In this document: in pieces, positions 1 through 53,968 of the stretch
Layout: every line of letters starts with the position of its first letter
Position numbering within the stretch: position 1 is the stretch's first letter
From: Oceanispirochaeta sp.
Lineage (GTDB): Bacteria; Spirochaetota; Spirochaetia; DSM-2461
Direction: 5' to 3'
Assembly (NCBI GenBank): GCA_963666275.2
Contig: CAXXOA010000001.1
Location: forward strand, 1-64,000
Length of the DNA: 64,000 nucleotides
Made by a program: the position numbers and the translations under genes
The notes under the pieces: generated by a model
What the model was told of the DNA's origin: nothing
The model's database searches: none
Seen by the model: the letters and a program-made list of their open reading frames with translations, nothing else

Positions 1-2713
<2,713 letters not shown>

Positions 2714-2888
2714 ATATTATTATTTATCCCTTGGTTGCAGAGGCGAGCAGTAAATCTCTGATTTACGACCAGCCTTTGAGATATAATTTTTATTCTGCTT
2801 TGAATTGCAGAAATAAATTATATCGTGTTATTTATAGAAATTAGCAGTTAACGCTGTTGATTATATATAGTGTGCTTCTGCACACAAT

Positions 2889-2995
2889 CTGGTGGCTATT
2901 GCGTTGAGGTTATACCCGTTCCCATCCCGAACACGGAAGTCAAGCTCAACTGCGCCGATGGTACTGCTACGGTGGGAGAGTAGGTCGTCGCCAGT
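2889..2995 (+). rRNA. rrf: 5S rRNA, copy 1
   Basis: CCCATCCCGAACAC...GCCGATGGTAC...GGGAGAGTAGG; helix I CTGGTGGC/GTCGCCAG. Confidence 0.95.
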
Positions 2996-3000
2996 TCAAT

Positions 3001-3031
3001 CGCCCCCTGTCTTCGGACAGGGGGCGTCTTT
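3001..3031 (+). terminator. Intrinsic terminator of rrn operon 1
   Basis: CGCCCCCTGTC-TTCG-GACAGGGGGCG perfect 11-bp stem with UUCG loop, followed by TCTTT. Confidence 0.85.
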
Positions 3032-3222
3032 AAGAAAAATCAGAATATCAGAATAATTCGCATTAGATTTGATACGGCTTTTGATGTGTTTCATGTTATT
3101 TGCTATATCAGGATCCCGATGCTGTTACTCAGAAAGCCCGTCTGTAAAATAACCGGGAAAACCGGTTTGTTCAGGCAGAATGGACTGTTTCTGTAATATT
3201 GCGAAAAAAATCCTGAAAAGGG

Positions 3223-3251
3223 TTTACAAAGGAAGTCATATTCAATATGAT
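3223..3251 (+). promoter_or_regulatory. Putative rrn P1 promoter
   Basis: TTTACA-17 bp-TATGAT with an upstream A-tract. Confidence 0.65.
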
Positions 3252-3339
3252 CATCCTCGCGCCTCAAGAAATTGATGCGCAAATGGAAATGATAAATAAC
3301 TGCCTTGAAAAGATTTAAAATATTTTTTTTGAAAAGCGG

Positions 3340-3369
3340 TTGACAAGAAATAGTAGTAACTGCTATAAC
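3340..3369 (+). promoter_or_regulatory. Putative rrn P2 promoter
   Basis: TTGACA-18 bp-TATAAC with an extended -10 TG and AT-rich UP-like sequence. Confidence 0.7.
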
Positions 3370-3398
3370 TTGTATCACATTGGCACGGAAGTTGCTAA

Positions 3399-3411
3399 TG
3401 GTTCTTTGAAA
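3399..3411 (+). promoter_or_regulatory. boxA-like antitermination site
   Basis: TGGTTCTTTGAAA just downstream of P2; resembles the rrn boxA consensus. Confidence 0.55.
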
Positions 3412-3751
3412 GAGTAAATAGAGAAGGGAAATTGAAGTATTTGACGAAAGTCAAGTCCATTGCGAATCACAGGCACTTGTGCCGGGGATCGCAATGATTG
3501 GTAGTATGTTCGGATCGCTGATCTTTTTAGATTGACGGTCCGCCCACTATGGTTCGGTTAAGGTTTATCTGAAGCCGTGACCATTAAGATTCCGTTCCTC
3601 GGCACTAGTGCCTGTGGTACGGAATATCGTTAGTTTTCTTTTAGAGATAAAGGGAATCTGACTCACTTTGAAGCGGATCAGGATGATTACATTCGACAGT
3701 ATCTGTTTTGAAGCTTTGATACGAACTTATCCACTTCGGTGGATAAATTAT

Positions 3752-5293
<1,542 letters not shown>

Positions 5294-5551
5294 AGCGTGA
5301 AAGGTATAAAGACCTTGAGTTTGTACACTTAAAGGCAGTGAGTCACTGAGCAATCGGTGCACTACTGATCATATATGGCTTGGCTTTCGTCAACTACTTC
5401 AAATTTCCCTATGGATCATCCTGCAGGTATTTATGCCGGTGAGGAATCCGACTCTTTTTATATAAAATCCGTCTTTGGACGGTCGTTTTATCCGGTTTGA
5501 CTGGATGGAATGCTTTTAAATAGGTAATAGCGAAGGGATAAATAATAATAT

Positions 5552-8483
<2,932 letters not shown>

Positions 8484-8709
8484 ATATTATTATTTATCCC
8501 TTGGTTGCAGAGGCGAGCAGTAAATCTCTGATTTACGACCAGCCTTTAAGATATAATTTTTATTCTGCTTTGAATTGTAGATATATTGCGAGAGCGAAGC
8601 GGAAGCATATTCAGCAATTCAAAAATTGCAGAAATAAATTATATCGTGTTATTTATAGAAATTAGCAGTTAATTCTGTTGATTATATATAGTGTGCTTCT
8701 ACACACAAT

Positions 8710-8816
8710 CCAGTGGCTATAGCGTTGAGGTTATACCCGTTCCCATCCCGAACACGGAAGTCAAGCTCAACTGCGCCGATGGTACTGCTACGGTGGGAGA
8801 GTAGGTCGTCGCTGGT
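8710..8816 (+). rRNA. rrf: 5S rRNA, copy 2
   Basis: Same core as copy 1; helix I CCAGTGGC/GTCGCTGG. Confidence 0.95.
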
Positions 8817-8821
8817 TTATT

Positions 8822-27421: not shown

Positions 27422-28033
27422 ATGGGATTTATGGGTGAAAGCGGAAAAAAGAAGAAAACCTCCCGGGATATTCAGGCTGAGAAATCCAGAGAACGGATAT
27501 ATAAGGTGGCGTCTTCTCTCATTTCCCGGAAAGGATTTTATGATACAAGTATTTCCGAAATCTGCCGGGAAGCCCAGTGCTCTGTTGGGGCTTTTTATCA
27601 TCACTTTTCCTCAAAAGACAGTATCCTGGAGGAGACATTCCGTCTGGCCGATATCGATTTTGCGGAATGGGAAGTTCCGGATCAGCAAATCCTCGACGGT
27701 AAGGAACTTGTTCTGCTCTATATGACTTCCTATGCGGACCTGATAGAACAGACAGGTCTGAATTTTATCAAACGTTTTTACAACAACGGGAATAAAACCT
27801 TTATTAAACAGGGCAGGCCTATGCAGACCCGTCTTGTTGAAATTATCGAATCTTCCGCACAGAACGGAAAGCTTGCAATCAGAGACACTCCTGCGGTGGT
27901 CTGTGAAAAGATTTTCATTGCCGCCCGGGGTGTTGTCTTCCACTGGTGCCTTCATGAAGGCGGTTTTGATCTGAAAACCCTTCTCCTGGACATGGTGAGT
28001 TGCGTCCTTGCAGACCAGGAATACAGGCCGTAG
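27422..28033 (+). CDS. TetR/AcrR-family regulator
   Basis: GFYDTSISEIC...GAFYHHFSSKD N-terminal HTH. Confidence 0.92.
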   Translation: MGFMGESGKKKKTSRDIQAEKSRERIYKVASSLISRKGFYDTSISEICREAQCSVGAFYHHFSSKDSILEETFRLADIDFAEWEVPDQQILDGKELVLLYMTSYADLIEQTGLNFIKRFYNNGNKTFIKQGRPMQTRLVEIIESSAQNGKLAIRDTPAVVCEKIFIAARGVVFHWCLHEGGFDLKTLLLDMVSCVLADQEYRP

Positions 28034-28165: not shown

Positions 28166-29947
28166 TTATTCTGCAGCAGCATTGGCTCCGGCAATTTTAC
28201 CGAATACATTGATGTCAACAAGAGCATTTCCACCGAGTCTGTTAGATCCGTGGATTCCTCCGGTTGTTTCTCCCGCAGCATAAAGACCAGGAATGATGTT
28301 TCCGTCTTTATCAAGAACCTGAGCTTTCTCATTGATTCTGATACCACCCATTGTGTGGTGTACAGTGGGGATTCTTCCTCCGGCAAAGTAGGGAGGAGTG
28401 TCCATTTTGTGCTGGAACAGGGTTCTGCCGAAAGAGTCGGGTCCGCCGGATTCAACTGCTGCATTGAACTCGGCAACAGCGGCTTTCAGGTTTTCAGCAT
28501 CCACATTCATTTTTTCGGCCAGTTCGTCCAGAGTATCAGCCATGAGAGCTCTGTCCTGGTCTACCAGTTCCTGAATGGTTTCATTGAAGTTGTTTTTGGT
28601 ATCCATTGTAGGATAGTTATGGGAATCCAGAACAATCCACATGAAGTTGTCTTTCTGTTCGAACAGGGCGCGGGTCATAACGTCCCGTCTTTCTGCTTCA
28701 TTGACAAATCTGTTTCCGTCTTTATTGATGAAAATTCTATTTTCAACAGCCTGCTCGATGTTACCGGAAAGGCTTCCTGTTACAGGATCACCCATGGGAA
28801 GGAGCTGAATGTGTTCCAGACCGATAAGTTCGGCGCCGATGTTCTCAGCCAGAGCCAGACCGTCACCGGTGGCGCCGGGGTGGTTTGTTGTTCCGACAGT
28901 GGACAGGGAGGGCCAGATCTTATTGTATTTGTCTCTCATTTCCTTGTTGGCACCGAAACCGCCGGTGGCAACGATCACAGCTTTATGACCCTGTGCTACA
29001 ACAGTACCGTTAGGTCCTTCGGCTTTCACAACATTGGCTCTTTTCACTCCATCCACATCTTCGAGGTAGATCTCGGTGACTTTTGTGTCTGTCAGGACTG
29101 TAATTCCGTCATGGGAGCTGATGTAGTCGGTATAGGTTTTGATATAACCTGTTCCCAGAGGGAGAACCGGTTTATGAGCTCTGGGCCAGAGACCGCCGAG
29201 AACAGTGAAAACATGATCCTTGAACTCCATTCCGAGGCTTTCAAGCCACTGGAGTGTAGGGTAGGAGTTTTCTACAAGGGTACGGACCATAACGGGATTA
29301 CCCAGGTTGTCTCCCCCTTTGAGGGTCTGTTCATAGTGCTTATCCACAGAGTCTTCAATTCCCTGGGGTTCCTGACGGGAGGGGTCAACCGCATTGTAGG
29401 CAGATCCTGAAATGATGGTATTACCACCGACCTGGGGCATCTTTTCCAGTACGATAACGCTGGCGCCGTTCTGGTTGGCAGAAACCGCAGCGGCAAGACC
29501 GGCTCCACCGGCTCCGATAACAACGATATCCGCATTCAGAACTTCTGTTGCAGCCGATACAGCATCAGCTTCTGTTTCTGTTTTGGTTGCCAGTGCCTCC
29601 ATATCAGCTCCGGCTTTGCCGAGGGCTTCTTCAACGGCTCCGATGATGGCGTTACTGGAGTATGTGGCTCCTGCCACAGTATCTACATCCAGGGTCTGAC
29701 CATCGATAATGGCTTTAATAATTCTATCGAAAGCCGCATCGGAAACACCGGGAGTTTCATGGTTTTCAATGACTTTGATTTCTTTGATAGATGATTTGTC
29801 CACGGTTACTTCGAGAACAACATCTTCTCCGTGAATACCGGGAGCGCCTCCCTGGTAGGTACCGGGTTCGAATTTTGCTTTGTTTCCGCATCCAGAAAAT
29901 GCGAGGACCATAGCAATGACCATAAGAAATGGGATTAGTCGTTTCAT
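28166..29947 (-). CDS. Extracytoplasmic FMN-binding flavocytochrome c / FAD-dependent enoate reductase lipoprotein (fumarate/urocanate reductase family)
   Basis: Lipobox FSGC; FMN_bind domain with DTVAGATYSS; GAGGAG; HHTMGG; GSNRLGGNA. Confidence 0.88.
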   Translation of the reverse strand: MKRLIPFLMVIAMVLAFSGCGNKAKFEPGTYQGGAPGIHGEDVVLEVTVDKSSIKEIKVIENHETPGVSDAAFDRIIKAIIDGQTLDVDTVAGATYSSNAIIGAVEEALGKAGADMEALATKTETEADAVSAATEVLNADIVVIGAGGAGLAAAVSANQNGASVIVLEKMPQVGGNTIISGSAYNAVDPSRQEPQGIEDSVDKHYEQTLKGGDNLGNPVMVRTLVENSYPTLQWLESLGMEFKDHVFTVLGGLWPRAHKPVLPLGTGYIKTYTDYISSHDGITVLTDTKVTEIYLEDVDGVKRANVVKAEGPNGTVVAQGHKAVIVATGGFGANKEMRDKYNKIWPSLSTVGTTNHPGATGDGLALAENIGAELIGLEHIQLLPMGDPVTGSLSGNIEQAVENRIFINKDGNRFVNEAERRDVMTRALFEQKDNFMWIVLDSHNYPTMDTKNNFNETIQELVDQDRALMADTLDELAEKMNVDAENLKAAVAEFNAAVESGGPDSFGRTLFQHKMDTPPYFAGGRIPTVHHTMGGIRINEKAQVLDKDGNIIPGLYAAGETTGGIHGSNRLGGNALVDINVFGKIAGANAAAE

Positions 29948-43355: not shown

Positions 43356-45233
43356 ATGGCGATCATGAATAAATTTTTCAACGGAAGGTCCCTGGAGTTA
43401 CTGGCTCCTGCCGGGACTTTTGATATTTATAAGACTATTATTGATTCCAAATGTGATGCGGTCTACTGCGGAGGAGAAGTTCTCAATATGAGACTGATCC
43501 GCAAGGGCTACAATTTAAGCAATGAAGAGCTGAAAGAAGCGGTTTATCTGGCCAATGAGCGGGATAAAAAAGTATACATAACAGTCAACAGCCTGCTGGA
43601 TCCCTCGGAACTCTCTCAGGCGGAGGAGTACCTCTCCTTCCTGGAGGAGATTCAGCCCCACGGTCTGATCATTCAGGACGCGGCTGTTCTGGACCTTGTA
43701 AAACGGAAAAAGCTGAACCTGACCCTGCACGGTTCGGTGATGATGAATATCCACAATCTGGATATGATCCGCTTTTTTGAAAAACAGGGTGTCAGCCGGG
43801 TGGTCCTCTCCCGGGAGATGTCTCTGAAGGATATCCGGGAGCTTTCGGCCCGTACGGATATGGAACTGGAGTACTTTACCCACGGGGATATGTGTGTGGC
43901 CCATGGGGCCCAGTGCCTCTACAGCTCCTGGCTTTTCGGTATGTCCGGCAGCCGGGGCCGCTGTCTCAAACCCTGTCGCTGGCCCTATTCCCGGCTCGGA
44001 ACGGATGAGGACAAACCCTTTCCCCTGGCCGTGAAAGACCTCAGCATGTACAGCTACCTGTCCGATATGATCCTGGCGGGAGTCTCATCCTTCAAGATCG
44101 AGGGACGTATGCGGGAGAAAGAGTTCATTGCCAGTCTTGTGAATACCTACGGAGAGGCTCTGGAGCGTTTTCTGGATGATCCCTACGGAGCGTCCCATGG
44201 GGATCCGGAAGACATGGAACCCTTTAAAAAGCGGGATTACTCGACAGGCTATGCCTTCGGTACCCCCGGCATAAAGAATATCAATACCCGGGGAGAAGGT
44301 TCCGGGAAGTTCTATTCAACAGGAAAGATGTTCAGCACCCCCACCCGGGAGAGGGAGATCAACGGGGAGGAATCCCTGCCTGCGGGAAGTCCCTCTGATA
44401 GCGTCCCTCTGGAAATGGCCGTTAAGGTAAACTCTCCCGATCAGGGCCGGCTGGCTCTGGAATACGGAGCCAGACGGATCTATCTGAGCGCCGAACCTTT
44501 TGCTCCGGATCTTCCTGTCTCCCGGAAAGATCTGGCAGAACTGGCGGATCAGTGCGGGCAAGCCGGTGCAGATCTCTATTTCAGTCTGCCCCGTATGATG
44601 TCGGCTCAGCAGAGCGACCTCTTCAGAGCCTACTTTTCAAGGCCCCTTCCGGTGAAAGGCGTCCTTGCCGGCCAGGCGGGAGTCCTTGAGTTTTTGAAAA
44701 GCAGCGAGTATTCTCTTGTCTGCGATACCCCCATGAATCTGTACAATGCCAGGGCAATCCGCTTTTATGCGGATCAGGGTTTCCAGGGTTGGACTCCTTC
44801 CCTGGAGCTTCCTTTTGACTCACTCCTTTCCCTTCCGGAAGATCTGAAGGCTCTGGGTTGCGAGGCCCGGGGGGAGGTGGTTCTCCACGGTCTGCCCACT
44901 GTGATGTATATGGACCACGATGTGAGCCGGCGGCAGGAGGATCGGGTGGAGCTGGACACTCCCGAATCCCGGCTGACCATACGGCGGGACTGGTGGAACC
45001 GGTATCATCTGCTTCCCCACAAAGAGCTCTCCCTGCTGCCCCGTCTGCCCGAACTGGTCTCCGCGGGGTACAGTCGTTTCCGTCTGGAACTCCAGGGCTA
45101 CGGGCCTGCGGAATCCCGGGAGGTTCTGAGGGCCTGCGGAGAGTCTCTGGCTGACCCCGCTTCGGGAGGGGGTATCCTGAAAAATCTGAAACCCATCGGA
45201 GGAGGCTTTACCTATGGCGCACACCATTTCTGA
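43356..45233 (+). CDS. U32-family Fe-S hydroxylase with a second, Cys-less U32-like domain (start may be 43365)
   Basis: ELLAPAG, DAVY.G, LSRE, HG-CX6CX15CX3C, KIEGR; repeat barrel with N.YN, ELP, HG. Confidence 0.9.
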   Translation: MAIMNKFFNGRSLELLAPAGTFDIYKTIIDSKCDAVYCGGEVLNMRLIRKGYNLSNEELKEAVYLANERDKKVYITVNSLLDPSELSQAEEYLSFLEEIQPHGLIIQDAAVLDLVKRKKLNLTLHGSVMMNIHNLDMIRFFEKQGVSRVVLSREMSLKDIRELSARTDMELEYFTHGDMCVAHGAQCLYSSWLFGMSGSRGRCLKPCRWPYSRLGTDEDKPFPLAVKDLSMYSYLSDMILAGVSSFKIEGRMREKEFIASLVNTYGEALERFLDDPYGASHGDPEDMEPFKKRDYSTGYAFGTPGIKNINTRGEGSGKFYSTGKMFSTPTREREINGEESLPAGSPSDSVPLEMAVKVNSPDQGRLALEYGARRIYLSAEPFAPDLPVSRKDLAELADQCGQAGADLYFSLPRMMSAQQSDLFRAYFSRPLPVKGVLAGQAGVLEFLKSSEYSLVCDTPMNLYNARAIRFYADQGFQGWTPSLELPFDSLLSLPEDLKALGCEARGEVVLHGLPTVMYMDHDVSRRQEDRVELDTPESRLTIRRDWWNRYHLLPHKELSLLPRLPELVSAGYSRFRLELQGYGPAESREVLRACGESLADPASGGGILKNLKPIGGGFTYGAHHF

Positions 45234-46470
45234 TACTAACCGGTCCGATTATATCGGTCCCGAGGGGATCATAGAAAAGAAACAGGAGTATCTGATGCCC
45301 TGTTCCTTTCATTTTTACAAAGACCCTCCCCAGCTTGTAAAAGGGAAAGGCACAAAGCTCTACGACAGCTCAGGGCGGGAGTATACCGACTTTTTTGCAG
45401 GGGTTTCGGTCATGAGCTGCGGCCACTGCAATGAGAAGATCAATGCAAAGGTTATGGAACAGCTCAATACGCTGCAGCATACCACTTCGATCTATCTGAC
45501 TCAGCCTGTGGTGGATCTGGCGCAGAAACTGGCGGAAGTCCTCCCGGGAAATCTGAAGCAGAGTTTTTTCTGCAACTCCGGATCCGAAGCCAACGAGGGA
45601 GCCATGCTGCTGGCCCGGGTTGCGACGGGAAAGCGGGAGTTCCTGGCTCTGGAGAGAAGTCTCCATGGAAGGACCTTCCTGACCTCGGGAGCCACGGGGA
45701 TTCCCATGTGGCGGACCGACCCTTTTGCGGATGAAAACCCTGTGCATTTTGCCTCTGATGCGGATCATGTCTGCCGGATCCTGGAAGAAAAGGGTGATGC
45801 CATCGCCGCTCTGATGGTGGAACCCATTCAGGGCAACGCGGGGATCCGTCCTCTGGAGCCGGATTTCTTTGAAAAGGTGGGCCCCCTGCTGAAGGAGAAG
45901 AAGGTGCTTCTTATCAGTGATGAGATCCAGACGGGGTTTGCCCGGACAGGACGGATGTTTGCCATTGAGCATTACGGGATCGTTCCGGATATCCTGACAG
46001 GAGCCAAAGCCCTGGGGAACGGATTTCCCATCGGTTTCTTTGCGGCCGTCCCCGAGGTTGCCGCCTCTTTTACAAAGCCCTCGGCTTCCACCCTGGGGGG
46101 GAACCCCGTCTCCTGTCAGGCCGGACTGGCTGTCCTGGATTTTATCCGGGAGGAAAAATTGATGGAAAAGGCGGATACACTGGGTGGAATTCTGAAAAAG
46201 GGACTGACCAGGTTCAGCGGTTTGACTGACCATCTGGGTGAGCCCCGGGGCATGGGCCTTATGCTGGGGATTCCCGTGCTGCCCGAGGGAACTTCCCAGG
46301 CGGCGGATATCACCGACAGGATCCTGGAAGGGATGAAAGACCGGGGATTCCTTATCGGAAAGAACGGTATGGGCCGGGATGTTCTGGCCTTTCAGCCTCC
46401 TCTTGTCATTTCAGAAGAGGAAATAAAAGAGATGCTTGCGGCATTGGAAGAACTATTAACGGAGTTATGA
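45214..46470 (+). CDS. Class III PLP-dependent aminotransferase
   Basis: NSGSEAN, HGRT, EPIQG, DEIQTGF.RTG, AKALGNG (PLP Lys), STLGGNP. Confidence 0.92.
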   Translation: MAHTISDTNRSDYIGPEGIIEKKQEYLMPCSFHFYKDPPQLVKGKGTKLYDSSGREYTDFFAGVSVMSCGHCNEKINAKVMEQLNTLQHTTSIYLTQPVVDLAQKLAEVLPGNLKQSFFCNSGSEANEGAMLLARVATGKREFLALERSLHGRTFLTSGATGIPMWRTDPFADENPVHFASDADHVCRILEEKGDAIAALMVEPIQGNAGIRPLEPDFFEKVGPLLKEKKVLLISDEIQTGFARTGRMFAIEHYGIVPDILTGAKALGNGFPIGFFAAVPEVAASFTKPSASTLGGNPVSCQAGLAVLDFIREEKLMEKADTLGGILKKGLTRFSGLTDHLGEPRGMGLMLGIPVLPEGTSQAADITDRILEGMKDRGFLIGKNGMGRDVLAFQPPLVISEEEIKEMLAALEELLTEL

Positions 46471-47336
46471 TGAAAAAGATTTTTACTGTTTTATATATTG
46501 CCTGCCTGACCCTTTCGGTTACGGCGGGAGGTCAGAAGGAAGGGGCTCCGGCGGATCAGCCTGTGCGGATCGGTGTTATGCCCGATGCGGGAGCTCTGCC
46601 TCTGTTCCTGATGGAGGGGGTCGAGACAGTTCCCTTTATGAGCGCCAAAGAGCGGGATACGGCTATGCAGCTGGGAGAACTGGACGGGATTATGACCGAC
46701 ATGGTCGCGGTGGTTTCCTACGGTCAGCGGGGCATGCCTCTGAAAGTCATGACAATCACAGAAAGCCGGTTCCTCCTGGTGGGGCATCCCGGTTTTTCCG
46801 AAGAGGACACCTGGAGCGTGGGGCTTTCGGAGAACACAGTGATTGAGTTTATGGTGGATCAGCTGGCTCAGGGGATCGATGTTGAAAAAGTCGGTATTCC
46901 CCAGGTCCCGGTGCGCATGGAGATGCTCCGGAACGGAAAAATCCCCCTGGCCTGTCTGACCGATGCCATGGCCTGGCCCCTACTGAGCCGGGATTTTCCC
47001 ATTGTAAGAGATCAGGCCGATACAGATCTGGAACCTGCTGTCCTGGCATTTTCTGCCGAGTATGCCGGAAAAAACAGTCACAAACTGGCGGATTTCAGCC
47101 GCCGATGGGATGAGGCGGTGGATAAGATTAACGCCAGTCCTGAAGAGTACCGGTCCCTCCTTCTGGAAAAAATCCGCCTCCCCGAGGACACAGATCACCC
47201 CTATCCCATGCCTGTATTCAGATCCATCCAGCTGCCTCCTGAGGGAACGGTGGAAAAGGTTTTAACCTGGTTTGATGAAAAATACGGACTCACCTCTCCG
47301 GTCTCCTACGGAGATCTGATGCTGCAGGGGGAGTAG
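46467..47336 (+). CDS. ABC substrate-binding protein (NMT1/SsuA-like)
   Basis: Signal peptide ending AGGQKE; IGVMP, F.SA.ERD...GELDG; co-operonic with a TauBC-like ATPase and permease. Confidence 0.8.
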   Translation: MMKKIFTVLYIACLTLSVTAGGQKEGAPADQPVRIGVMPDAGALPLFLMEGVETVPFMSAKERDTAMQLGELDGIMTDMVAVVSYGQRGMPLKVMTITESRFLLVGHPGFSEEDTWSVGLSENTVIEFMVDQLAQGIDVEKVGIPQVPVRMEMLRNGKIPLACLTDAMAWPLLSRDFPIVRDQADTDLEPAVLAFSAEYAGKNSHKLADFSRRWDEAVDKINASPEEYRSLLLEKIRLPEDTDHPYPMPVFRSIQLPPEGTVEKVLTWFDEKYGLTSPVSYGDLMLQGE

Positions 47337-47339
47337 TCC

Positions 47340-48788
47340 ATGTCCTATAAAAGTCTGCAGGATTTTATCAAGCAGCTGGAGAAGGAGGGAGAGCTGAAAC
47401 GGATCAGCCTTCCTGTGGATTCTCATCTTGAAATTACCGAAATTACAGACAGGGTCAGCAAGCAGAACGGTCCGGCCCTTCTTTTTGAAAATGTGAAGGG
47501 TTCTGAATTCCCCGTGCTTATCAATGCCATGGGGAGCTACAAAAGGATGGCCATGGCTCTGGGGGCCGCGTCCCTGGACGAAAAGGCCGCTGAACTGGAA
47601 GATCTGATGGAGTGGGGTTTTTCCCAGATGCGACAGCTGGACATTATGAGCTTCTTTCCCAAGATCAAATGGGCCCGGCTCTTTCTGCCCCACAAGGTCC
47701 TTTCCGCTCCCTGCCAGCAGGTGGTGGATCATGACCCCGATCTGGGGACACTGCCTGTTCTTACCTGCTGGCCCGGTGACGGGGGCCCCTTTTTCACACT
47801 GCCTCTTGTGATTACAAAAGATCCCGAAACGGGGGCCCAGAATATGGGAATGTACAGGATGCAGGTGTACGACAGAAACACAACGGGAATGCACTGGCAC
47901 CACCACAAGGACGGAGCCCATTTCTATCAGAAATACAAGGACCAGGGAGAGAAAATGCCCGTAGCTGTGGCACTGGGTGATGACCCTGCGGTGACCTATT
48001 CGGCCACAGCCCCGCTTCCCGAGGGAATCTCGGAGCTCTTTTTTGCAGGATACCTCCGGGGAAAGCCGGTGGATACCGTTAAGTGCATCACTTCGGATCT
48101 TCAGGTTCCGGCCAATGCGGAGTTTATCCTGGAAGGCTATGTGGATCCTTCGGAACCGCTGCGCCGGGAAGGCCCCTTCGGGGATCATACGGGTTACTAC
48201 TCCCTGGCCGATGACTTTCCCGTCTTCCATGTGACCTGCATTACCCGGAAGAAAAAGCCTGTTTTTCCGGCTACCATCGTGGGACAGCCTCCCATGGAGG
48301 ACTGCTATATGGCTAAAGCTACGGAAAGGCTCTTTCTGCCGCTTCTGAAGAAGATGCATCCCGAGATCATCGATATGAACCTTCCCCTGGAAGGGGTTTT
48401 TCACAACTGCGCCATCATCTCCATAAAAAAACGCTTTGCCGGGCATGTCCATAAAGTTCTGAGCAGCCTCTGGGGGCTGGGGCAGATGATGTACACCAAA
48501 ATGATCATTGTGGTAGACCACGATGTGGATGTGCAGGACCTGAGCCTCGTGATGTGGAAGGTCTTCAACAATATCGATGCCGAAAGGGATCTGATCATGA
48601 GTCAGGGCCCCCTGGATACTCTGGATCATGCTTCCCCCCGGGCCCGGTTCGGTACCCGCCTGGGCGTGGATGCCACCCGGAAAGGGCCCATGGACGGCCA
48701 TCACAGGGAGTGGCCTGAAGACATTGTGATGAGCGATGAAATCAAAGAACAGGTAGACCGCAGATGGAAGGAGCTGGGTTTTGAATAA
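47340..48788 (+). CDS. UbiD-family prFMN-dependent decarboxylase (MqnL-like)
   Basis: GPALLFENV, NMGMYR, EGPFGDHTGYY, GQPPMED, VDHDVD, LDH, GVDAT. Confidence 0.93.
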   Translation: MSYKSLQDFIKQLEKEGELKRISLPVDSHLEITEITDRVSKQNGPALLFENVKGSEFPVLINAMGSYKRMAMALGAASLDEKAAELEDLMEWGFSQMRQLDIMSFFPKIKWARLFLPHKVLSAPCQQVVDHDPDLGTLPVLTCWPGDGGPFFTLPLVITKDPETGAQNMGMYRMQVYDRNTTGMHWHHHKDGAHFYQKYKDQGEKMPVAVALGDDPAVTYSATAPLPEGISELFFAGYLRGKPVDTVKCITSDLQVPANAEFILEGYVDPSEPLRREGPFGDHTGYYSLADDFPVFHVTCITRKKKPVFPATIVGQPPMEDCYMAKATERLFLPLLKKMHPEIIDMNLPLEGVFHNCAIISIKKRFAGHVHKVLSSLWGLGQMMYTKMIIVVDHDVDVQDLSLVMWKVFNNIDAERDLIMSQGPLDTLDHASPRARFGTRLGVDATRKGPMDGHHREWPEDIVMSDEIKEQVDRRWKELGFE

Positions 48789-49683
48789 GCTCATCACCCT
48801 GGCGGGACGGGAGCTGGAAAGGGGAAAGGGGATCAGCCGGGCCGTGATGCTGGAGCATACCCTTTTCTCCCTGCCCCTGGCTGTGAGCGCCTTCCTTCTG
48901 GAAAGCAGGGGCCGTCCGGCTCTTATGGATGTGGTCTGGATTCTCCTGGCCGTATTCGGAGCCCGCAACGGCGCCAATGCGCTGAACCGCCTGATTGACC
49001 GGAAAATCGATGCGGCTAATCCCCGGACAGCCGGGAGGGATCTGCCCTCAGGGAAGGTGAAAGCCCTGGATCTTTGGCTTTTCACGGCTTTCTGCGGCAT
49101 CCTCTTTATAGTGTCCGCAGCCATGCTGAACCCGCTCTGTCTGGCCCTTGTGCCAGTCGGTGCCGTTCTGATCGGAGGCTACTCCTTTACCAAACGGTTC
49201 ACCTGGCTCTGCCATTTCTGGCTGGGCGTCACCTGCTCCGCCGCGGTGATGGGCAGTTATCTCGCCCTGACCGGCCACTTTGAGATCCGGTATTTTCCTC
49301 TGACCATCGCCGCGGCCCTCTGGATCGCCGGTTTTGATATGATCTACGCCCTTCAGGATATTGAGCACGACAGAGCCCACGGGATCCATTCGGTTCCCGC
49401 CCGGTTCGGCCGCAGCGGCGCTCTTGTGATCATCGCTTTGTGCCATGCCGGAGCGGTTTTGTTTTTTGCCCTGAATGCCCTGTTTTTTCCGGTCCGGATC
49501 TGGTACTTCCTGGGACTGGCCGGGGCGTCTCTTCTCCTGATCGCGGAAAACCTGATCGCCCGTAAGGGGAGCGTCAAATGGATTCCCCTGGCGTCCTACC
49601 ATCTGAATCAGATCCTTTCGCCTCTGTTTCTTCTCTTTGTCCTGCTGGATATCTATCTGCCCGGAGGACTGTATGGGAATTGA
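48781..49683 (+). CDS. UbiA-family aromatic prenyltransferase (MqnP-like)
   Basis: EHTLFSLP, NRLIDRKIDAANPRT, YSFTKR, FDMIYALQD..HD; TTG start overlapping the ubiD stop. Confidence 0.92.
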   Translation: MNKLITLAGRELERGKGISRAVMLEHTLFSLPLAVSAFLLESRGRPALMDVVWILLAVFGARNGANALNRLIDRKIDAANPRTAGRDLPSGKVKALDLWLFTAFCGILFIVSAAMLNPLCLALVPVGAVLIGGYSFTKRFTWLCHFWLGVTCSAAVMGSYLALTGHFEIRYFPLTIAAALWIAGFDMIYALQDIEHDRAHGIHSVPARFGRSGALVIIALCHAGAVLFFALNALFFPVRIWYFLGLAGASLLLIAENLIARKGSVKWIPLASYHLNQILSPLFLLFVLLDIYLPGGLYGN

Positions 49684-49698
49684 AGGACAGGGCCGGAG

Positions 49699-50451
49699 AT
49701 GATTGCCTTCAGGGACCTCTCCTACTGTTACGGCAGCGGCAAAGCTGTGATCCCCTGTCTGAACGGCTCCTGGGAAGCCGGCAGGATCCACGGACTGATC
49801 GGCCCCTCGGGCTGCGGAAAGAGCACGCTCCTCTATCTGATCGCGGGACTTTTAACTCCTTCGGGAGGGGATCTGCTTGTGGATTCTGAGACTCCGGTTC
49901 CGGGAAGGTATAAAACCGCTGTGATCCTGCAGAATCACGGGCTTTTCCCCTGGAAAACAGCCTGGGAAAATATTGCTCTGGGCCTCAAAATCCGCAAAGA
50001 GAAACCGGCTGTGATCCGCCGGAAGGTGGCGCAGGTTCTGGAGGAGCTGGGTCTTCAGGGAAAGGAGAAATCCTATCCCCGGGAGCTCTCGGGGGGAGAA
50101 CAGCAGAGGCTTGCCATCGGGCGGGCGCTGGTGCTGGATCCGGAACTCCTTCTGCTGGATGAACCCTTTTCCGCTCTGGATGCCATGACCCGGGAGAGAC
50201 TGCAGGACAGCCTCTGGATGCTGAAACAGAGGCGTTCGGAAGGGACGGGACTGACTGTTGTCCATGTGACCCACAGTATTGAAGAGGCTGTCTTTCTGAG
50301 TGACCGCATTCATATCATGGATCAGGCCGGTGAGATCCACAGCACGGAAAATCATACCCCCGGCCCGGGATACAGAATGGAAAGCTCCTATTTCGAACGC
50401 TGTGTGGCCCTGAGAAAGGCCTTTGATCTTCATACGGGAGGGGAGATGTGA
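49699..50451 (+). CDS. ABC ATPase (TauB/SsuB-like)
   Basis: GPSGCGKS, LFPW, LSGGEQQR, LLDEPFSALD, VTH. Confidence 0.93.
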   Translation: MIAFRDLSYCYGSGKAVIPCLNGSWEAGRIHGLIGPSGCGKSTLLYLIAGLLTPSGGDLLVDSETPVPGRYKTAVILQNHGLFPWKTAWENIALGLKIRKEKPAVIRRKVAQVLEELGLQGKEKSYPRELSGGEQQRLAIGRALVLDPELLLLDEPFSALDAMTRERLQDSLWMLKQRRSEGTGLTVVHVTHSIEEAVFLSDRIHIMDQAGEIHSTENHTPGPGYRMESSYFERCVALRKAFDLHTGGEM

Positions 50452-51173
50452 AAAGACTGATTCCTCCGCTGCTCTTTTTTCTTTTTCTCTGGTGGGTGCT
50501 GGCCCTTGTTCTGGCCATCCCGTTTCTGCCGGCACCGGACAGGGTGATACTGGAACTCTTTGATCAGTTCCGTCAGGGGCTCCTGGGGCCTCATCTGGCG
50601 ATTTCCCTCTACAGGGTTCTCACGGCTCTGGCTCTGGCGTTTATCCCCGCCCTGTTTCTGGGAATCCTCTCGGGCGTAAACCGGAAGATCGACCGAGTTG
50701 TCAGCCCCGGAGTATACCTGCTCTATCCGATTCCCAAAGTGGCCCTTCTGCCAATTATCCTCCTCTTTCTGGGGCTTGGAAACGGCTCGAAGATCTTCTT
50801 TGTGGCTCTTATTATTTTCTTTCAGTTCTATCTGAACTTCCGTGATGAAACCGCCGGGATCAATCAGCGGTACTTTGATTCCCTGACCACTCTGGGAGGG
50901 GGCCGTATCGATCAGTGGAGACACATCATTCTGCCGGCTCTGCTTCCGAGGATCTACTCTTCCCTGCGGATGACCCTGGGAACCGCCATTGCCGTCCTGT
51001 TCCTGGCGGAAACTTTTGCCACCAGGCAGGGAATCGGCTGGTACATCATGGATGCCTGGTCCCGGTTCGCCTATGTGGAGATGTATGCGGGCATTGCCGC
51101 TCTGAGTCTGTCGGGGCTGGTTCTCTTCCTTCTGCTGGATCTGGCGGAAGCTTTGAGCTGCCGCTGGAAGTGA
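50448..51173 (+). CDS. ABC permease (TauC/SsuC-like)
   Basis: PIPKVALLP, ILPALLP, AE...GIG motifs; GTGA overlap. Confidence 0.92.
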   Translation: MKRLIPPLLFFLFLWWVLALVLAIPFLPAPDRVILELFDQFRQGLLGPHLAISLYRVLTALALAFIPALFLGILSGVNRKIDRVVSPGVYLLYPIPKVALLPIILLFLGLGNGSKIFFVALIIFFQFYLNFRDETAGINQRYFDSLTTLGGGRIDQWRHIILPALLPRIYSSLRMTLGTAIAVLFLAETFATRQGIGWYIMDAWSRFAYVEMYAGIAALSLSGLVLFLLLDLAEALSCRWK

Positions 51174-51260: not shown

Positions 51261-52397
51261 CTATCCCTGAAATATATAATTATTTAGCCAAAGTTCAAAA
51301 ACCGGATCCAGAATGGTCAGGGATGATGATGTTATATCAATGATGTCATTCTCTTCCAGCCGTTTCTTATTTTTACTGACGTTCCCGGAAGTTCCCAACT
51401 TGTATTTTTGCAGGATCGATGCAGAGTTCAGCGAGGTTTCTCCATTACATAGTGCCCTGAGTAGATTTATCTGACTTGGACTGAAGCCTTCGAATTCCCT
51501 TGTAAAGAAAGGGCGGTTTGTATTGATTAACTGGTCTATTCCTGTATGAAATATTTCTTCGGTGACAATCTTTTCTGTCAGTGTCCAGATGATATGGGAC
51601 AGTTGTTGAACATAATAGGGGTGGTTTTTCATATGATCGGCAATTCTTCCGCAAAGAGCAGATGGAATGTCCTTTCCTGTTCTCTGAAAAGAATCTCCGA
51701 TGAAATCCACCCAGTGCTGCCGATCAATTTTTTCAAGAAAAAGAACTGTACCGAATCGATAGAACGGACTATTCTGGTTGTGGAAAATATGACTCATCAT
51801 ATGACGTTTACTGCCATACAGGCAGTAGGTCGTTAAACTGTGTGTCTGCCAGCGGCTGCGCAGCTCTTTCAGCAGTTCTTTGGGCTGTCCATATTGTGAG
51901 AGATTCTGAAATTCATCGATACATATCAGAAATTTTATTTTCTTCCTGCTAGCGATTTTCTCGGGTAAATCGAGAATCTCATGACGATGTTCTGAGACTT
52001 CACTAATATTGAAACTGAGAGATATATCTCCTCCCGCTGTATCAGGAGCAAGGGTAATCTTTGGGACTATGTTTTTCAGAAATGTTTTGGTATTCTGAAT
52101 TATTTCTTCCAGCTTTCCCGATGACGCTTTAATAACCTCTTTGGCATAAAGTTCCAGAAACTCCTCTTCAGTTCTTATACTGAAAAGATCTATCATTATG
52201 ACACGATATTGCTGATTTGGAATGAATGTCTCATCCATATACTTTTTTATTAATGAAGATTTGCCCCAGCGACGGGGAGATATAAGGATGGTCGATAAAC
52301 TGCTGGACAGGTTGGATTTGAGTAATTTCATGATCTCTTCCCTGTCTGTGAAGGATCTTCCTGATACAATTCTACCGAAAGAAAAGGGCGAAGTCAT
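51261..52397 (-). CDS. P-loop ATPase (archaeal ATPase/STAND-like) with a probable C-terminal wHTH
   Basis: PFSFG...FTDR, PRRWGKSS, IDEFQ, GS, HPYYVQ, DPVF; AAGGAG SD before MTSPF. Confidence 0.85.
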   Translation of the reverse strand: MTSPFSFGRIVSGRSFTDREEIMKLLKSNLSSSLSTILISPRRWGKSSLIKKYMDETFIPNQQYRVIMIDLFSIRTEEEFLELYAKEVIKASSGKLEEIIQNTKTFLKNIVPKITLAPDTAGGDISLSFNISEVSEHRHEILDLPEKIASRKKIKFLICIDEFQNLSQYGQPKELLKELRSRWQTHSLTTYCLYGSKRHMMSHIFHNQNSPFYRFGTVLFLEKIDRQHWVDFIGDSFQRTGKDIPSALCGRIADHMKNHPYYVQQLSHIIWTLTEKIVTEEIFHTGIDQLINTNRPFFTREFEGFSPSQINLLRALCNGETSLNSASILQKYKLGTSGNVSKNKKRLEENDIIDITSSSLTILDPVFELWLNNYIFQG

Positions 52398-52480
52398 TTG
52401 AAACTCCTTGGTATGATACTCGATAGTAGCATACCAAGAGGTATCATGCAATTAATAATTTATCTGAGAGAAGCTGGATA

Positions 52481-53968
52481 TCAGTTCAGATCTTCGATCC
52501 TGACGATTCCGATTTTATTCAGAACAATGCAGAAGTGGTAGATCTCTTCCTCTTCTATCTGACTGTCTTCCCTGAGGCTCATAATCAGATGGATTCTGTA
52601 GACCCGGTTTCCTTTGATTTTCAGTTTTTTCCGGTTCTCCAGGCGGTAGAAGATGTCTTTGGGATCATCCATCTCCTTGAGCCAGTCCTGAATGTTGATC
52701 CGGATTATTTCGGTGATACTGCTGGTCCGGCTGTGATGGTCCCTCAGTTTCCGGGACTTCAGCTCTATGATCCGTTTATAGTGAATGATATCCTGTTCCG
52801 GCAGGATCGAGCGGAAAGGGTTGGGCTGCTGATACCGGGCTTTCAGGATCTTCACCGGGACATCTCCGGCCTTTTCAAATCCCGCATATCCCCTGCTGAC
52901 ACCCACTTTTTTCTGCTGGGCCCTGTCAAAAAGGAGCGAGAGCTGATCCGAGGTAATCCGGGGCATCAGTTTCTTCATCCACTCCCGGAGGACTTCCTTG
53001 ATTCTGTCTTTGAACACATAGGACATGACAATCAGCAGTATCCAGGGAAGGCTGTTGGGAATGAACATCTTTCCGGCGAAGATCGTCACAAGCACCGCGA
53101 AAATCATAGCCACACCGGCGGCGATTCCCGCTATGATATGGCCCACTCTATGAGGGGTTCTGCTCTCTTCCAGGTTCATGTACATGGCTGACTGGGACCA
53201 CTTTTTGAGGATACTCTCCCTGTAGGCCATCCTTTCCCCCGAGTAGGGGTCGTTTTCCCTGTAGAGGTACTCGTATTTCATGCTCTCCCTGTAGACTGTT
53301 TCCGCCCGGGTTATCTCCTCATAGGAACTGAGCAGTTCCTCAGGGTTCTCCAGGGACAGGCTGTAGGTAAACAGCCGGTTCAGGGCCCTCTCCGTGGTTA
53401 TGCTTATGGATTCATCCGCCCAGGCCAGGGCGGTTCTCTGGACTTCTGAAACCCGGGGATTGATAAAGGCTTCGTGGAGTTTCCGGAAGGTTTTGAGAAA
53501 GGTCTGAACCTCATCCAGAAAGACATGGATCCTTCTGATACACATACTGTCCATATTGCGTTTCTGGATCTCATTGTTTATCAGTTCTACCGTGTTATCC
53601 ACTTCCACCTTATAGATATTCGCAAGAATCTGAAGCTCATGGAGGAGGACATCCCTCCTGCGGGGCTGCTTGATTTCAGGAATTTCCATAAAATTGAGGA
53701 TCCGGGTAATCGGGCTGAGTTTGTTTTTTTTATCCACCAGCATTTTCAGAGAAAGCCCGGGGGTGGAAAACCTTGTATAGACTTTAATGTTTTCTATAAA
53801 ACGTTTTACACCTATACGCCTTCCTGTGACATTCAGCTGGTTGGGGAAGAAAAAGTAGAAATCCATCTGGTAGTCGGTGAGCTTTTTATCCTTCAGGAGG
53901 GGATATTCCGATTTCAGTTCAAGGTGATGGCGGCTATGGACCCGGATGGAACAGTTGTATTCTTTCAT
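52481..53968 (-). CDS. Hypothetical membrane protein (2 central TM)
   Basis: 495-aa ORF with its own TTGCAA-17-TATTGT promoter; function not recognised. Confidence 0.75.
   Translation of the reverse strand: MKEYNCSIRVHSRHHLELKSEYPLLKDKKLTDYQMDFYFFFPNQLNVTGRRIGVKRFIENIKVYTRFSTPGLSLKMLVDKKNKLSPITRILNFMEIPEIKQPRRRDVLLHELQILANIYKVEVDNTVELINNEIQKRNMDSMCIRRIHVFLDEVQTFLKTFRKLHEAFINPRVSEVQRTALAWADESISITTERALNRLFTYSLSLENPEELLSSYEEITRAETVYRESMKYEYLYRENDPYSGERMAYRESILKKWSQSAMYMNLEESRTPHRVGHIIAGIAAGVAMIFAVLVTIFAGKMFIPNSLPWILLIVMSYVFKDRIKEVLREWMKKLMPRITSDQLSLLFDRAQQKKVGVSRGYAGFEKAGDVPVKILKARYQQPNPFRSILPEQDIIHYKRIIELKSRKLRDHHSRTSSITEIIRINIQDWLKEMDDPKDIFYRLENRKKLKIKGNRVYRIHLIMSLREDSQIEEEEIYHFCIVLNKIGIVRIEDLN

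Follow-up and report, generated by a model that had tools for sequence, protein, structure and literature searches.

The 64,000-nucleotide stretch of Oceanispirochaeta sp. DNA analysed here (contig CAXXOA010000001.1, positions 1 to 64,000; hereafter the window) carries a cluster of seven genes at positions 43356-51173. They code for a long protein of the U32 iron-sulfur (Fe-S) family, a class III aminotransferase (AT3), a solute-binding protein (SBP), a UbiD, a UbiA, and the ATPase and permease of an ATP-binding cassette (ABC) transporter. With moderate confidence, we propose that these genes supply the head-group arm of an isoprenoid quinone to an electron transfer chain of the FLEET (flavin-based extracellular electron transfer) kind, in which Ndh2, EetA and EetB would serve extracytosolic flavinylated reductases. 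The original prediction made from this DNA had proposed an O2-independent quinone pathway. The association of the genes with quinone synthesis is supported; what had been missed is the FLEET setting and the fact that the cluster is made of two modules, a core and an add-on.

The seven genes are all transcribed from the plus strand and form one operon (Table 1). Open reading frame (ORF) listing and direct reading of the junctions gave, in order, a 20-bp overlap, an ATGA, a 3-bp gap, an 8-bp overlap, a 15-bp gap and a GTGA. The genes, families and junctions described in the original prediction were all borne out by the ORF list, the junction reading and Pfam, as was its view of a single operon, the seven genes being kept as one unit in 7 of 10 congeneric genomes. 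The cluster is preceded by trkH and trkA genes. An Rfam scan of the whole window returned rRNAs only and no element within the cluster; thus, no riboswitch accounts for its regulation. Scanning the cluster for promoter and terminator patterns gave matches at background level only.

Table 1. Genes of the cluster, in order of transcription.
Gene	Position	Strand	Product	Assignment
U32	43356-45233	+	625 aa	PF01136 Peptidase_U32
Class III aminotransferase (AT3)	45214-46470	+	418 aa	PF00202 Aminotran_3
Solute-binding (lipo)protein (SBP)	46467-47336	+	289 aa	predicted fold
UbiD	47340-48788	+	482 aa	PF01977, PF20696, PF20695 (three UbiD domains)
UbiA	48781-49683	+	300 aa, TTG start	PF01040
ABC ATPase	49699-50451	+	250 aa	PF00005 ABC_tran, 107.1 bits
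ABC permease	50448-51173	+	241 aa, GTG start	PF00528 BPD_transp_1, 60.5 bits

The link to extracellular electron transfer (EET) emerged from the analysis of related loci. These were collected by alignment of the long U32, with one genome per species; at least 527 related stretches were found, of which the 80 best were retained. Other genes in these loci were counted by tblastn, and seven loci were annotated by Pfam. At least 55 of the 80 belong to Paenibacillaceae. Genes for U32, AT3 and UbiA, with or without UbiD, UbiX, SBP and ABC genes, recur in varied order in Spirochaetota, Paenibacillaceae and several clostridial lineages. The synteny on which the original prediction had staked itself is therefore kept within the genus, and the association of the genes recurs across lineages. 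UbiA was found in 69 loci, UbiD and the binding protein in 16 each, the permease in 14 and UbiX in 11. FLEET-type genes were frequent in the same loci: EetA and EetB were scored in 60 loci each, a polyprenyl synthase in 51, Ndh2 in 48 and ApbE in 27, and at least one of EetA, EetB and Ndh2 in 61.

The gene order in individual loci illustrates the physical linkage. In a Paenibacillus locus (L051), NusG_II (EetA) and Hpre_diP_synt_I (EetB) genes are followed by two energy-coupling factor (ECF) ATPases, a CbiQ T-component, U32, AT3 and UbiA, and the opposite strand carries a polyprenyl synthase and an Ndh2 with Pyr_redox_2 and DoxX domains. A 179-aa ORF with no Pfam match lies between the polyprenyl synthase and Ndh2 in Paenibacillaceae (L051:17150-17689, minus strand; 45 of 80 loci). 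In a Clostridium locus (L080) the order is Ndh2, polyprenyl synthase, U32, AT3, UbiD, UbiA, UbiX, an NMT1-type SBP, ATPase and permease, then ApbE; EetA and EetB were also detected there by tblastn. In this Clostridium locus and four related ones, 5 of the 80 in all, AT3 is separated from UbiD by a PAC_bac gene (PF21758, bacterial proteasome-assembly-chaperone-like; L080:13254-13634, minus strand). In loci of the Fusibacter type, U32 and AT3 converge on a permease-ATPase-UbiX-UbiA-UbiD series, and the binding protein gene is divergent. Three loci with full flanks, from Anaerovorax, Vallitalea and Fusibacter ferrireducens, are missing UbiA, and in these genomes UbiD-UbiA are found elsewhere. 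The Vallitalea genome has, apart from U32-AT3, a binding protein gene followed by Ndh2-EetA-EetB-UbiD-UbiA-UbiX-ABC (L121); that of Anaerovorax has, again apart from U32-AT3, ApbE followed by Ndh2-EetA-EetB-polyprenyl synthase-UbiD-UbiA-ABC (L122).

The FLEET locus of Listeria monocytogenes and Lactiplantibacillus plantarum comprises Ndh2, EetA, EetB/DmkB, DmkA, PplA and FmnA/FmnB (PMC9888254). The loci described here resemble it in that Ndh2, EetA, EetB, a polyprenyl synthase and ApbE/FmnB are accompanied by a quinone arm of their own, the module being embedded in loci of this kind in Paenibacillaceae and Clostridium. They differ from it in that an MqnP-like UbiA, an MqnL-type UbiD and UbiX stand in the place of the MenA-type DmkA, in the addition of a binding-protein-dependent ABC importer, in the U32-aminotransferase pair, which is not part of the FLEET locus as described, and in that FLEET-type genes are scattered in the genome of the window.

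The association was also seen at the level of whole genomes. Fourteen U32-AT3 carriers from outside the genus were searched, five Paenibacillus and nine Clostridia. An Ndh2 orthologue (42-49% identity), an EetB (PF07456, one gene each) and a UbiA matching TIGR01475 were present in 14 of 14, as compared with EetB in 2 of 14 control genomes. A UbiD above the MqnL cut-off was found in 11; the other three, all Paenibacillus, had only lower-scoring UbiDs. No MenB scored above cut-off in any of 18 genomes searched. The early genes of the futalosine pathway showed a distribution of their own. All five Paenibacillus genomes have two strong PF02621 (MqnA/MqnD type) genes each, at about 230-244 bits, and their modules have neither binding protein nor ABC genes. 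Among the nine Clostridia, PF02621 gave no match in seven and weak ones in two (38.7 and 23.2 bits), and the importer is present in at least eight of these nine genomes; in four congeners, the same search gave a single match of 41 bits and nothing in the other three. Thus, the importer and the early futalosine genes occur in different genomes, not together.

The five Paenibacillus genomes also tell the cluster UbiA apart from that of the futalosine pathway. A separate, canonical mqn operon (polyprenyl synthase-PF02621-UbiX-UbiA) is present, and the UbiA of the EET locus is only 40-41% identical to the MqnP of that operon, as against 49-58% to the clostridial cluster UbiAs. Since it is nearer to the latter than to the MqnP of its own genome, the EET-locus UbiA appears to be a dedicated second prenyltransferase. 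Listeria presents a comparable case, DmkA being a second prenyltransferase beside MenA.

Within the genus, 7 of the 10 congeneric genomes encode the long U32; a search of 30 more distant relatives found it in none. The seven loci fetched from these genomes all have the seven genes in the same order, with protein identities of 51-92%. In one case (L032/L021) the U32 orthologue is split into 546-aa and 102-aa frames, which could reflect a frameshift, a pseudogene or an assembly error. One congener has, at the same TrkH-TrkA site, an SBP-UbiD-UbiA-UbiX-ATPase-permease series with neither U32 nor aminotransferase (L120, 8416-13718). Because the core stands alone there, the unit can be divided into a core, made of SBP, MqnL-type UbiD, MqnP-like UbiA and ABC importer (joined by UbiX in other genomes), and a separable U32-aminotransferase add-on. 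Across 11 genomes of the genus, the cluster UbiD was found in 9 and Ndh2 in 10. UbiD and Ndh2 are both missing from one genome; in another, which is fragmented, Ndh2 is partial and UbiD missing. The distance between Ndh2 and the cluster is about 6 kb in one congener.

The prenyl-aromatic assignment of UbiD and UbiA in the original prediction was supported at the family level and could be refined to the futalosine type. UbiD scored 638.8 with the MqnL equivalog model (TIGR03701 mena_SCO4490), above the cut-off of 495.9, and is accordingly classed, from its profile match, as a decarboxylase of the MqnL type that would depend on prenylated flavin mononucleotide (prFMN). Its identity is 81-92% in congeners and 57-61% in the Firmicutes clusters. 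The cluster UbiDs of Clostridium (L080:13769-15613) and Fusibacter (L053:16347-18152), at about 600-614 aa, exceed the spirochaete UbiD by about 120-130 aa and have a second UbiD_C stretch. UbiA matched PF01040 at 171.2 bits and TIGR01475 ubiA_other at 254.5, above the cut-off of 180.8. It missed the MqnP exception models (258.6 against 430, 200 against 420 and 196.7 against 375), and the menA model gave 20.4. Identities of 42-46% to Firmicutes cluster UbiAs, 38% to the MqnP of the Paenibacillus mqn operon and 29% to E. coli UbiA likewise point to an aromatic-acid polyprenyltransferase of the UbiA superfamily that is MqnP-like.

The UbiX of the spirochaete lies outside the cluster, elsewhere in the genome (C2:1119295-1119846; TIGR00421 at 203.1 bits against a cut-off of 108.9). 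It is located between two more UbiD paralogues of 450 and 445 aa, in a region (C2:1115248-1123602) that also contains an aldehyde dehydrogenase, an iron-dependent alcohol dehydrogenase, an FMN reductase and GntR and RpiR regulators. The region is probably an aromatic-acid decarboxylase cluster in its own right, with a prFMN synthase used in common with the UbiD of the window. The likeness to the late futalosine steps (MqnP, MqnL, MqnM/UbiX) thus consists of a UbiD that passes the MqnL cut-off, a UbiA closest to the MqnP models, and a UbiX in the genome or in the cluster.

The binding protein matched no Pfam and no NCBIfam model, and its comparison with PDB sequences gave chance matches only. 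Its N-terminus resembles a signal or lipoprotein sequence, and its predicted structure (predicted local distance difference test, pLDDT, 89) has the SsuA/TauA/NMT1 fold. The closest structure found with Foldseek was SsuA (2x26, TMq 0.73), followed by TauA, ThiY and PqqT, at 12-17% identity. The protein is 28-32% identical to the binding proteins of the Clostridia clusters, and three of five of those carry PF09084/PF13379. The ABC ATPase matched taurine/nitrate/sulfonate-type ATPase models of NCBIfam below their cut-offs and is 39-46% identical to the ATPase of the clostridial clusters; the permease, 38-44% identical to its clostridial counterparts, matched the SaoP, SsuC and TauC models, again below the cut-offs. 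Taken together, the three proteins are predicted to form a binding-protein-dependent importer of the NitT/TauT type. A taurine or aminosulfonate import-and-transamination operon, suggested by the combination of a TauABC-like transporter with a class III transaminase, was considered and rejected: UbiD and UbiA separate the SBP gene from those of the ATPase and permease, and elsewhere the transporter travels with UbiD/UbiA/UbiX and not with the aminotransferase.

The genome of the window, which is 97% complete, has its own set of electron transfer genes. A 670-aa Ndh2 and a polyprenyl synthase are adjacent (C1:2474506-2477488) and face a reductase with FMN_bind and FAD_binding_2 domains, a sensor kinase/response regulator and another FAD_binding_2 protein; by its gene content, the whole region (C1:2474506-2483259, L115) qualifies as a FLEET-like respiratory island in a spirochaete. 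EetA (NusG_II) and EetB (Hpre_diP_synt_I) are encoded at C2:1581064-1581979, and ApbE at C1:2113841-2114890. FMN-binding domains flavinylated by ApbE mark extracytosolic electron-transfer systems (PMC8238504). The window itself encodes a 593-aa protein (28166-29947, minus strand) in which an FMN_bind domain at the N-terminus is combined with a FAD_binding_2 domain; its gene adjoins that of a TetR regulator (27422-28033, plus strand). Its domains identify it as a putative fumarate/urocanate-type reductase of the ApbE-flavinylated extracytosolic kind. Encoded 13 kb from the cluster, this reductase could draw its electrons from the quinone that the cluster is proposed to make.

Genes for the synthesis of the head group were searched for in the same genome. 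PF02621 (MqnA/MqnD) gave no match, and MenB, MenD and the chorismate lyases (UbiC, Rv2949c-like) gave nothing at family cut-off. No UbiE/MenG reached the cut-off, the best of 12 weak matches scoring 50.9 against 158.35; one of the 12, a generic methyltransferase, adjoins ApbE. The SCP2 family (PF02036, UbiT-like) was not matched either. The lack of mqn, men and methyltransferase genes that had been stated for the window was borne out for MenB, MenD, MqnA/D and UbiE/MenG, none of which reached cut-off in the window or in the whole genome, and it is here, as well as in the missed MqnP exception models, that the system departs from the futalosine pathway. FLEET has been described with a MenA-type DmkA dependent on 1,4-dihydroxy-2-naphthoate (DHNA), which Lactiplantibacillus plantarum requires from outside (PMC9888254). 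The spirochaete and the Clostridia are comparable to L. plantarum, having no head-group synthesis gene above cut-off.

We then turned to the U32-AT3 pair. The N-terminal half of U32 contains the PF01136 domain (253.6 bits against a cut-off of 22.4) and the CX6CX15CX3C motif announced in the original prediction, at residues 180-207; its four cysteines are kept in 80 of 80 related loci. A profile search revealed a second, weak U32 match covering positions 44649-45089 of the window, and BLASTP paired residues 364-578 with the N-terminal part of E. coli RlhA and residues 438-530 with UbiV. No cysteine is conserved in the C-terminal half over the 80 loci. The predicted structure (pLDDT 86.7; predicted template modelling score, pTM, 0.89) shows two alpha/beta barrels. 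Fold searches retrieved double-barrel proteins at low template modelling (TM) scores, the sole U32 structure matched being the fragment 5d88, and no PDB sequence was matched at E <= 0.01. Thus, U32 is an internal duplication, a tandem barrel whose second barrel is U32-like and degenerate. When the C-terminal half was searched against 1.84 billion proteins, 270 representatives were recovered at E <= 0.001, 50 at 1e-10 and 6 at 1e-30, many of the matches being proteins of 600-680 aa with the same architecture.

Among the E. coli U32 proteins, the best pairwise match was the RlhA N-terminus (33% over 270 aa, BLASTP), with identities of 26% to UbiU and 24% to UbiV. U32 reaches none of the four NCBIfam U32 equivalog cut-offs; the scores were 153.3 against 534 for TrhP, 140.8 against 440 for UbiU and 71.1 against 275 for UbiV. 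In a maximum-likelihood tree of N-terminal domains, the cluster-type U32s form one clade (support 91/89) on a long stem, outside E. coli UbiU, UbiV, TrhP and RlhA and outside the two further U32 paralogues of the genome; the tree has these four E. coli proteins as its only characterised references, and its deep branching order is poorly supported. On the strength of the tree and the cut-offs, the cluster-type U32 is assigned to an uncharacterised subfamily of its own; a position within RlhA/TrhP, which would have told against the original prediction, is not what this tree shows.

By analogy with known family members, U32 is a candidate O2-independent hydroxylase. U32 enzymes hydroxylate C-H positions beside a carbonyl or a phenol, in ubiquinone intermediates and in pyrimidines. 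Pelosi et al. are said to have described, in 2019, UbiU-UbiV-UbiT as the O2-independent hydroxylase system of ubiquinone synthesis. The protein studied here resembles that system in combining a U32 domain and the CX6CX15CX3C motif with a quinone-biosynthetic context, and in having two U32-like barrels, here fused. It differs from UbiU and UbiV in its low identity, the missed cut-offs, its separate clade, a second barrel devoid of conserved cysteines, the lack of an SCP2/UbiT match and the presence of an aminotransferase partner.

The aminotransferase matched PF00202 at 304.8 bits. It scored 333.1 with the argD subfamily model (TIGR00707), below the cut-off of 410.05, and reached none of the 25 best-listed NCBIfam models. 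Its closest solved structures are acetylornithine/acetyl-lysine aminotransferases. Residues K265, D236 and R388 are invariant in 11 orthologues, and K265, the pyridoxal phosphate (PLP) lysine, is kept in 76 of 77 loci, the remaining one being unaligned. R388 is the arginine that binds the substrate carboxylate in class III aminotransferases, enzymes whose target carbonyls lie at a distance from a carboxylate. In place of the GH(G/A)xP of three aligned ArgD structures, the subfamily shows GHC(N). A CXXC redox motif (CGHC) was considered and discarded; it is invariant in 11 sequences, but over the 77 loci the first cysteine is present in 54 and the second in 73. Identity with HemL was rejected as well, no glutamate-1-semialdehyde aminomutase model being among the 25 best NCBIfam matches.

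The pairing of AT3 with U32 is tight. The aminotransferase gene overlaps that of U32 by 20 bp, indicative of translational coupling, and lies directly after it in 77 of the 80 loci; in the other three, only 66, 180 and 687 nt remain after U32 before the end of the locus. Prediction of a complex between U32 (residues 10-625) and AT3 (residues 38-418) gave a score of 0.00, which carries no weight either way as to binding.

On these grounds, we propose the following scheme. The lipoprotein SBP and the ABC permease and ATPase would import an aromatic acid that serves as head-group precursor and that the cell cannot make, most likely a hydroxynaphthoate (of the 1,4-dihydroxy-6-naphthoate or DHNA kind), less likely 4-hydroxybenzoate or an amino analogue. 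The MqnP-like UbiA would attach a polyprenyl chain made by the synthase encoded beside Ndh2, and the MqnL-type UbiD would decarboxylate the product with prFMN from the unlinked UbiX. The cluster contains no methyltransferase, and for this reason the quinone is proposed to be of a demethyl type. U32 and AT3, as a separable add-on, would probably tailor the head group without O2, to judge from the chemistry of their relatives, possibly as far as an amino-quinone. U32 would hydroxylate a free ring C-H, and AT3 might swap the resulting hydroxy or keto group for an amino group, or else act in some other way on a carbonyl or amine of the precursor; the outcome would be a modified quinone, probably of lower potential. 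Because both proteins look soluble, no SCP2 carrier is encoded, and a dedicated UbiA is found beside the pair in Paenibacillus, the two enzymes may act before prenylation.

A bolder claim, which we regard as doubtful, is that U32 and AT3 constitute an enzymatic route to an amino-substituted isoprenoid quinone, the first to need neither O2 nor RquA, and that this quinone is a dedicated FLEET carrier in Paenibacillaceae, many Clostridia and some spirochaetes. U32 would then hydroxylate the free position of a demethyl-(naphtho)quinol and AT3 would introduce the NH2 group, yielding a low-potential carrier akin to an "amino-demethylmenaquinone"; organisms without the early futalosine steps would depend on cross-feeding for the head group, which the importer of the cluster would take up. 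Known amino-quinones offer a partial parallel. Rhodoquinone is made by RquA, which is not an aminotransferase, or from 3-hydroxyanthranilate in animals. 2-Amino-3-carboxy-1,4-naphthoquinone (ACNQ) is described as a soluble EET shuttle with a potential of -0.32 V vs Ag/AgCl, reportedly formed non-enzymatically from DHNA (PMC6687433); it shows that EET can be carried by an amino-naphthoquinone. The proposed product would be like both compounds in being an amino-substituted quinone used in anaerobic or extracellular electron transfer; the system differs from both in encoding a PLP aminotransferase together with a prenyltransferase, with nitrogen in the product being only a candidate feature.

Several points weigh against the proposal that the operon serves a FLEET-like chain in this manner. 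Substrates, order of the steps, reactions of U32 and AT3 and nature of the product are all proposed by analogy. The characterised relatives nearest to the aminotransferase (ArgD, LysJ, GabT) act on aliphatic omega-amines or aldehydes and not on ring ketones, which weakens the ring-transamination step. The soluble appearance of U32 and AT3 and the lack of an SCP2/UbiT-like carrier in the genome argue against their acting on a polyprenylated intermediate. The role of the binding protein as receptor for the imported aromatic precursor is proposed from the modelled fold; at 12-17% identity only the fold is established, with no clue to the ligand. The UbiA tree was a polytomy in which the cluster UbiAs were not separated from canonical MqnP (two rows, of 33 aa and 1 aa, were faulty); the second UbiA-family gene of the genome (at C3) had a very long branch in that tree and joined E. 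coli MenA. Since one congener keeps the core alone, U32-AT3 must be dispensable for whatever the core makes. In the genome of the window, the FLEET-type genes are dispersed and unlinked to the cluster, and EetB is present in all 11 congeners, including two without the cluster. A methylation step may still exist, given the 12 weak matches to the UbiE model and the position of one of them beside ApbE. Finally, because Paenibacillaceae dominate the set, the evidence amounts to about 5-6 independent lineages or arrangements rather than 80.

Other explanations for the cluster were considered. One, unlikely in our estimate, is that U32 and AT3 offer the cell a substitute for import, in that they synthesise the aromatic head-group precursor themselves, starting from a central metabolite; they might, for instance, transaminate a keto intermediate in the shikimate pathway or convert prephenate or arogenate through Fe-S chemistry. 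This would suit the finding that Paenibacillus has U32-AT3-UbiA and no importer, that one congener has the importer and no U32-AT3, and that many genomes have both. It would also suit two soluble-looking proteins in a genome that has chorismate synthase and no SCP2 carrier, and the Paenibacillus EET-locus UbiA, as a paralogue separate from MqnP, would fit a non-futalosine substrate. However, a pair of enzymes is a small set for assembling an aromatic acid, a futalosine head group is already made in Paenibacillus and, to our knowledge of the UbiU/V, TrhP and RlhA literature, no U32 member makes an aromatic ring.

It appears quite improbable that U32 is a prephenate-dependent ring hydroxylase like UbiU/V and that AT3 merely clears a keto acid such as phenylpyruvate, or makes a co-substrate, the product being a nitrogen-free benzo- or naphthoquinone. 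The constancy of the U32 domain and of the four-cysteine motif in all 80 loci would agree with such a role for U32, and an invariant R388 would fit an amino-acid/keto-acid pair; moreover, conversion of a prenylphenol to a benzoquinol needs exactly one hydroxylation, as in the logic of ubiquinone and plastoquinone synthesis. Yet UbiU/V systems have no dedicated aminotransferase, as in the E. coli ubiT-ubiU-ubiV locus, aromatic keto acids are normally substrates of class I aminotransferases, and the 77/80 adjacency with coupling by overlap suggests a more specific partnership.

We give very little credence to the idea that the product is some other prenylated aromatic (a secondary metabolite, a cofactor precursor or an envelope lipid) and not a respiratory quinone. 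UbiA/UbiD/UbiX trios lacking an assigned function are common in anaerobes, and loci of the Fusibacter/Acidaminobacteraceae type, like the window itself, have no FLEET gene in the flanks available, but this has to be set against FLEET genes in 61 of the 80 loci, Ndh2 and EetB in 14 of 14 genomes and a UbiD that passes the MqnL cut-off. Lastly, that U32 is an RNA hydroxylase of the RlhA/TrhP type, placed here by coincidence beside an ordinary menaquinone salvage operon, is scarcely credible: it shares with them the U32 Fe-S domain, has RlhA as its best E. coli match and is of similar length (RlhA, 653 aa), but it lies outside their clade and below the TrhP cut-off, its setting is one of quinone and EET genes and not of RNA, the linkage to aminotransferase and UbiA is kept across phyla, and the two other U32s of the genome could serve RNA.

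A few features of the window lie apart from these questions. Directly downstream of the cluster, a minus-strand segment (51261-53968) contains an AAA ATPase gene with weak ATPase_2/ORC-CDC6-like Pfam matches and a gene for a 495-aa protein whose sole match, to PF07225, is weak and barely at cut-off. Tandem rRNA sets occupy the start of the contig (window positions 1-8817, Rfam). The first comprises a 23S gene cut by the window start (1-2715) and a 5S gene (2888-2996), and the second 16S (3752-5292), 23S (5552-8485) and 5S (8709-8817) genes.

The pathway had been put forward as undescribed, and this held in the literature searched. No description was found of the U32-AT3 pair, or of a UbiA/UbiD/UbiX-importer module in FLEET loci, in a search whose coverage left out most subscription journals and supplements. 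Quinone biosynthesis for FLEET is known; what is uncharacterised is the U32 subfamily tied to an aminotransferase. In that same literature, no description was found of the source of the quinone used by Ndh2 and EetAB in Paenibacillaceae, many Clostridia and these spirochaetes. The module offers a testable answer, namely a late pathway of the futalosine type, supplied through an importer in organisms unable to make the head group, and the question can be addressed directly because the module occurs in culturable Paenibacillus and Clostridium species and U32-AT3 is all that one natural congener lacks. An importer-fed pathway would imply cross-feeding of quinone precursors in anoxic communities. 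If, in addition, the pair does aminate the ring, it would represent a new O2-free route to a low-potential quinone, parallel to that of rhodoquinone and an enzymatic counterpart of the abiotic formation of ACNQ.

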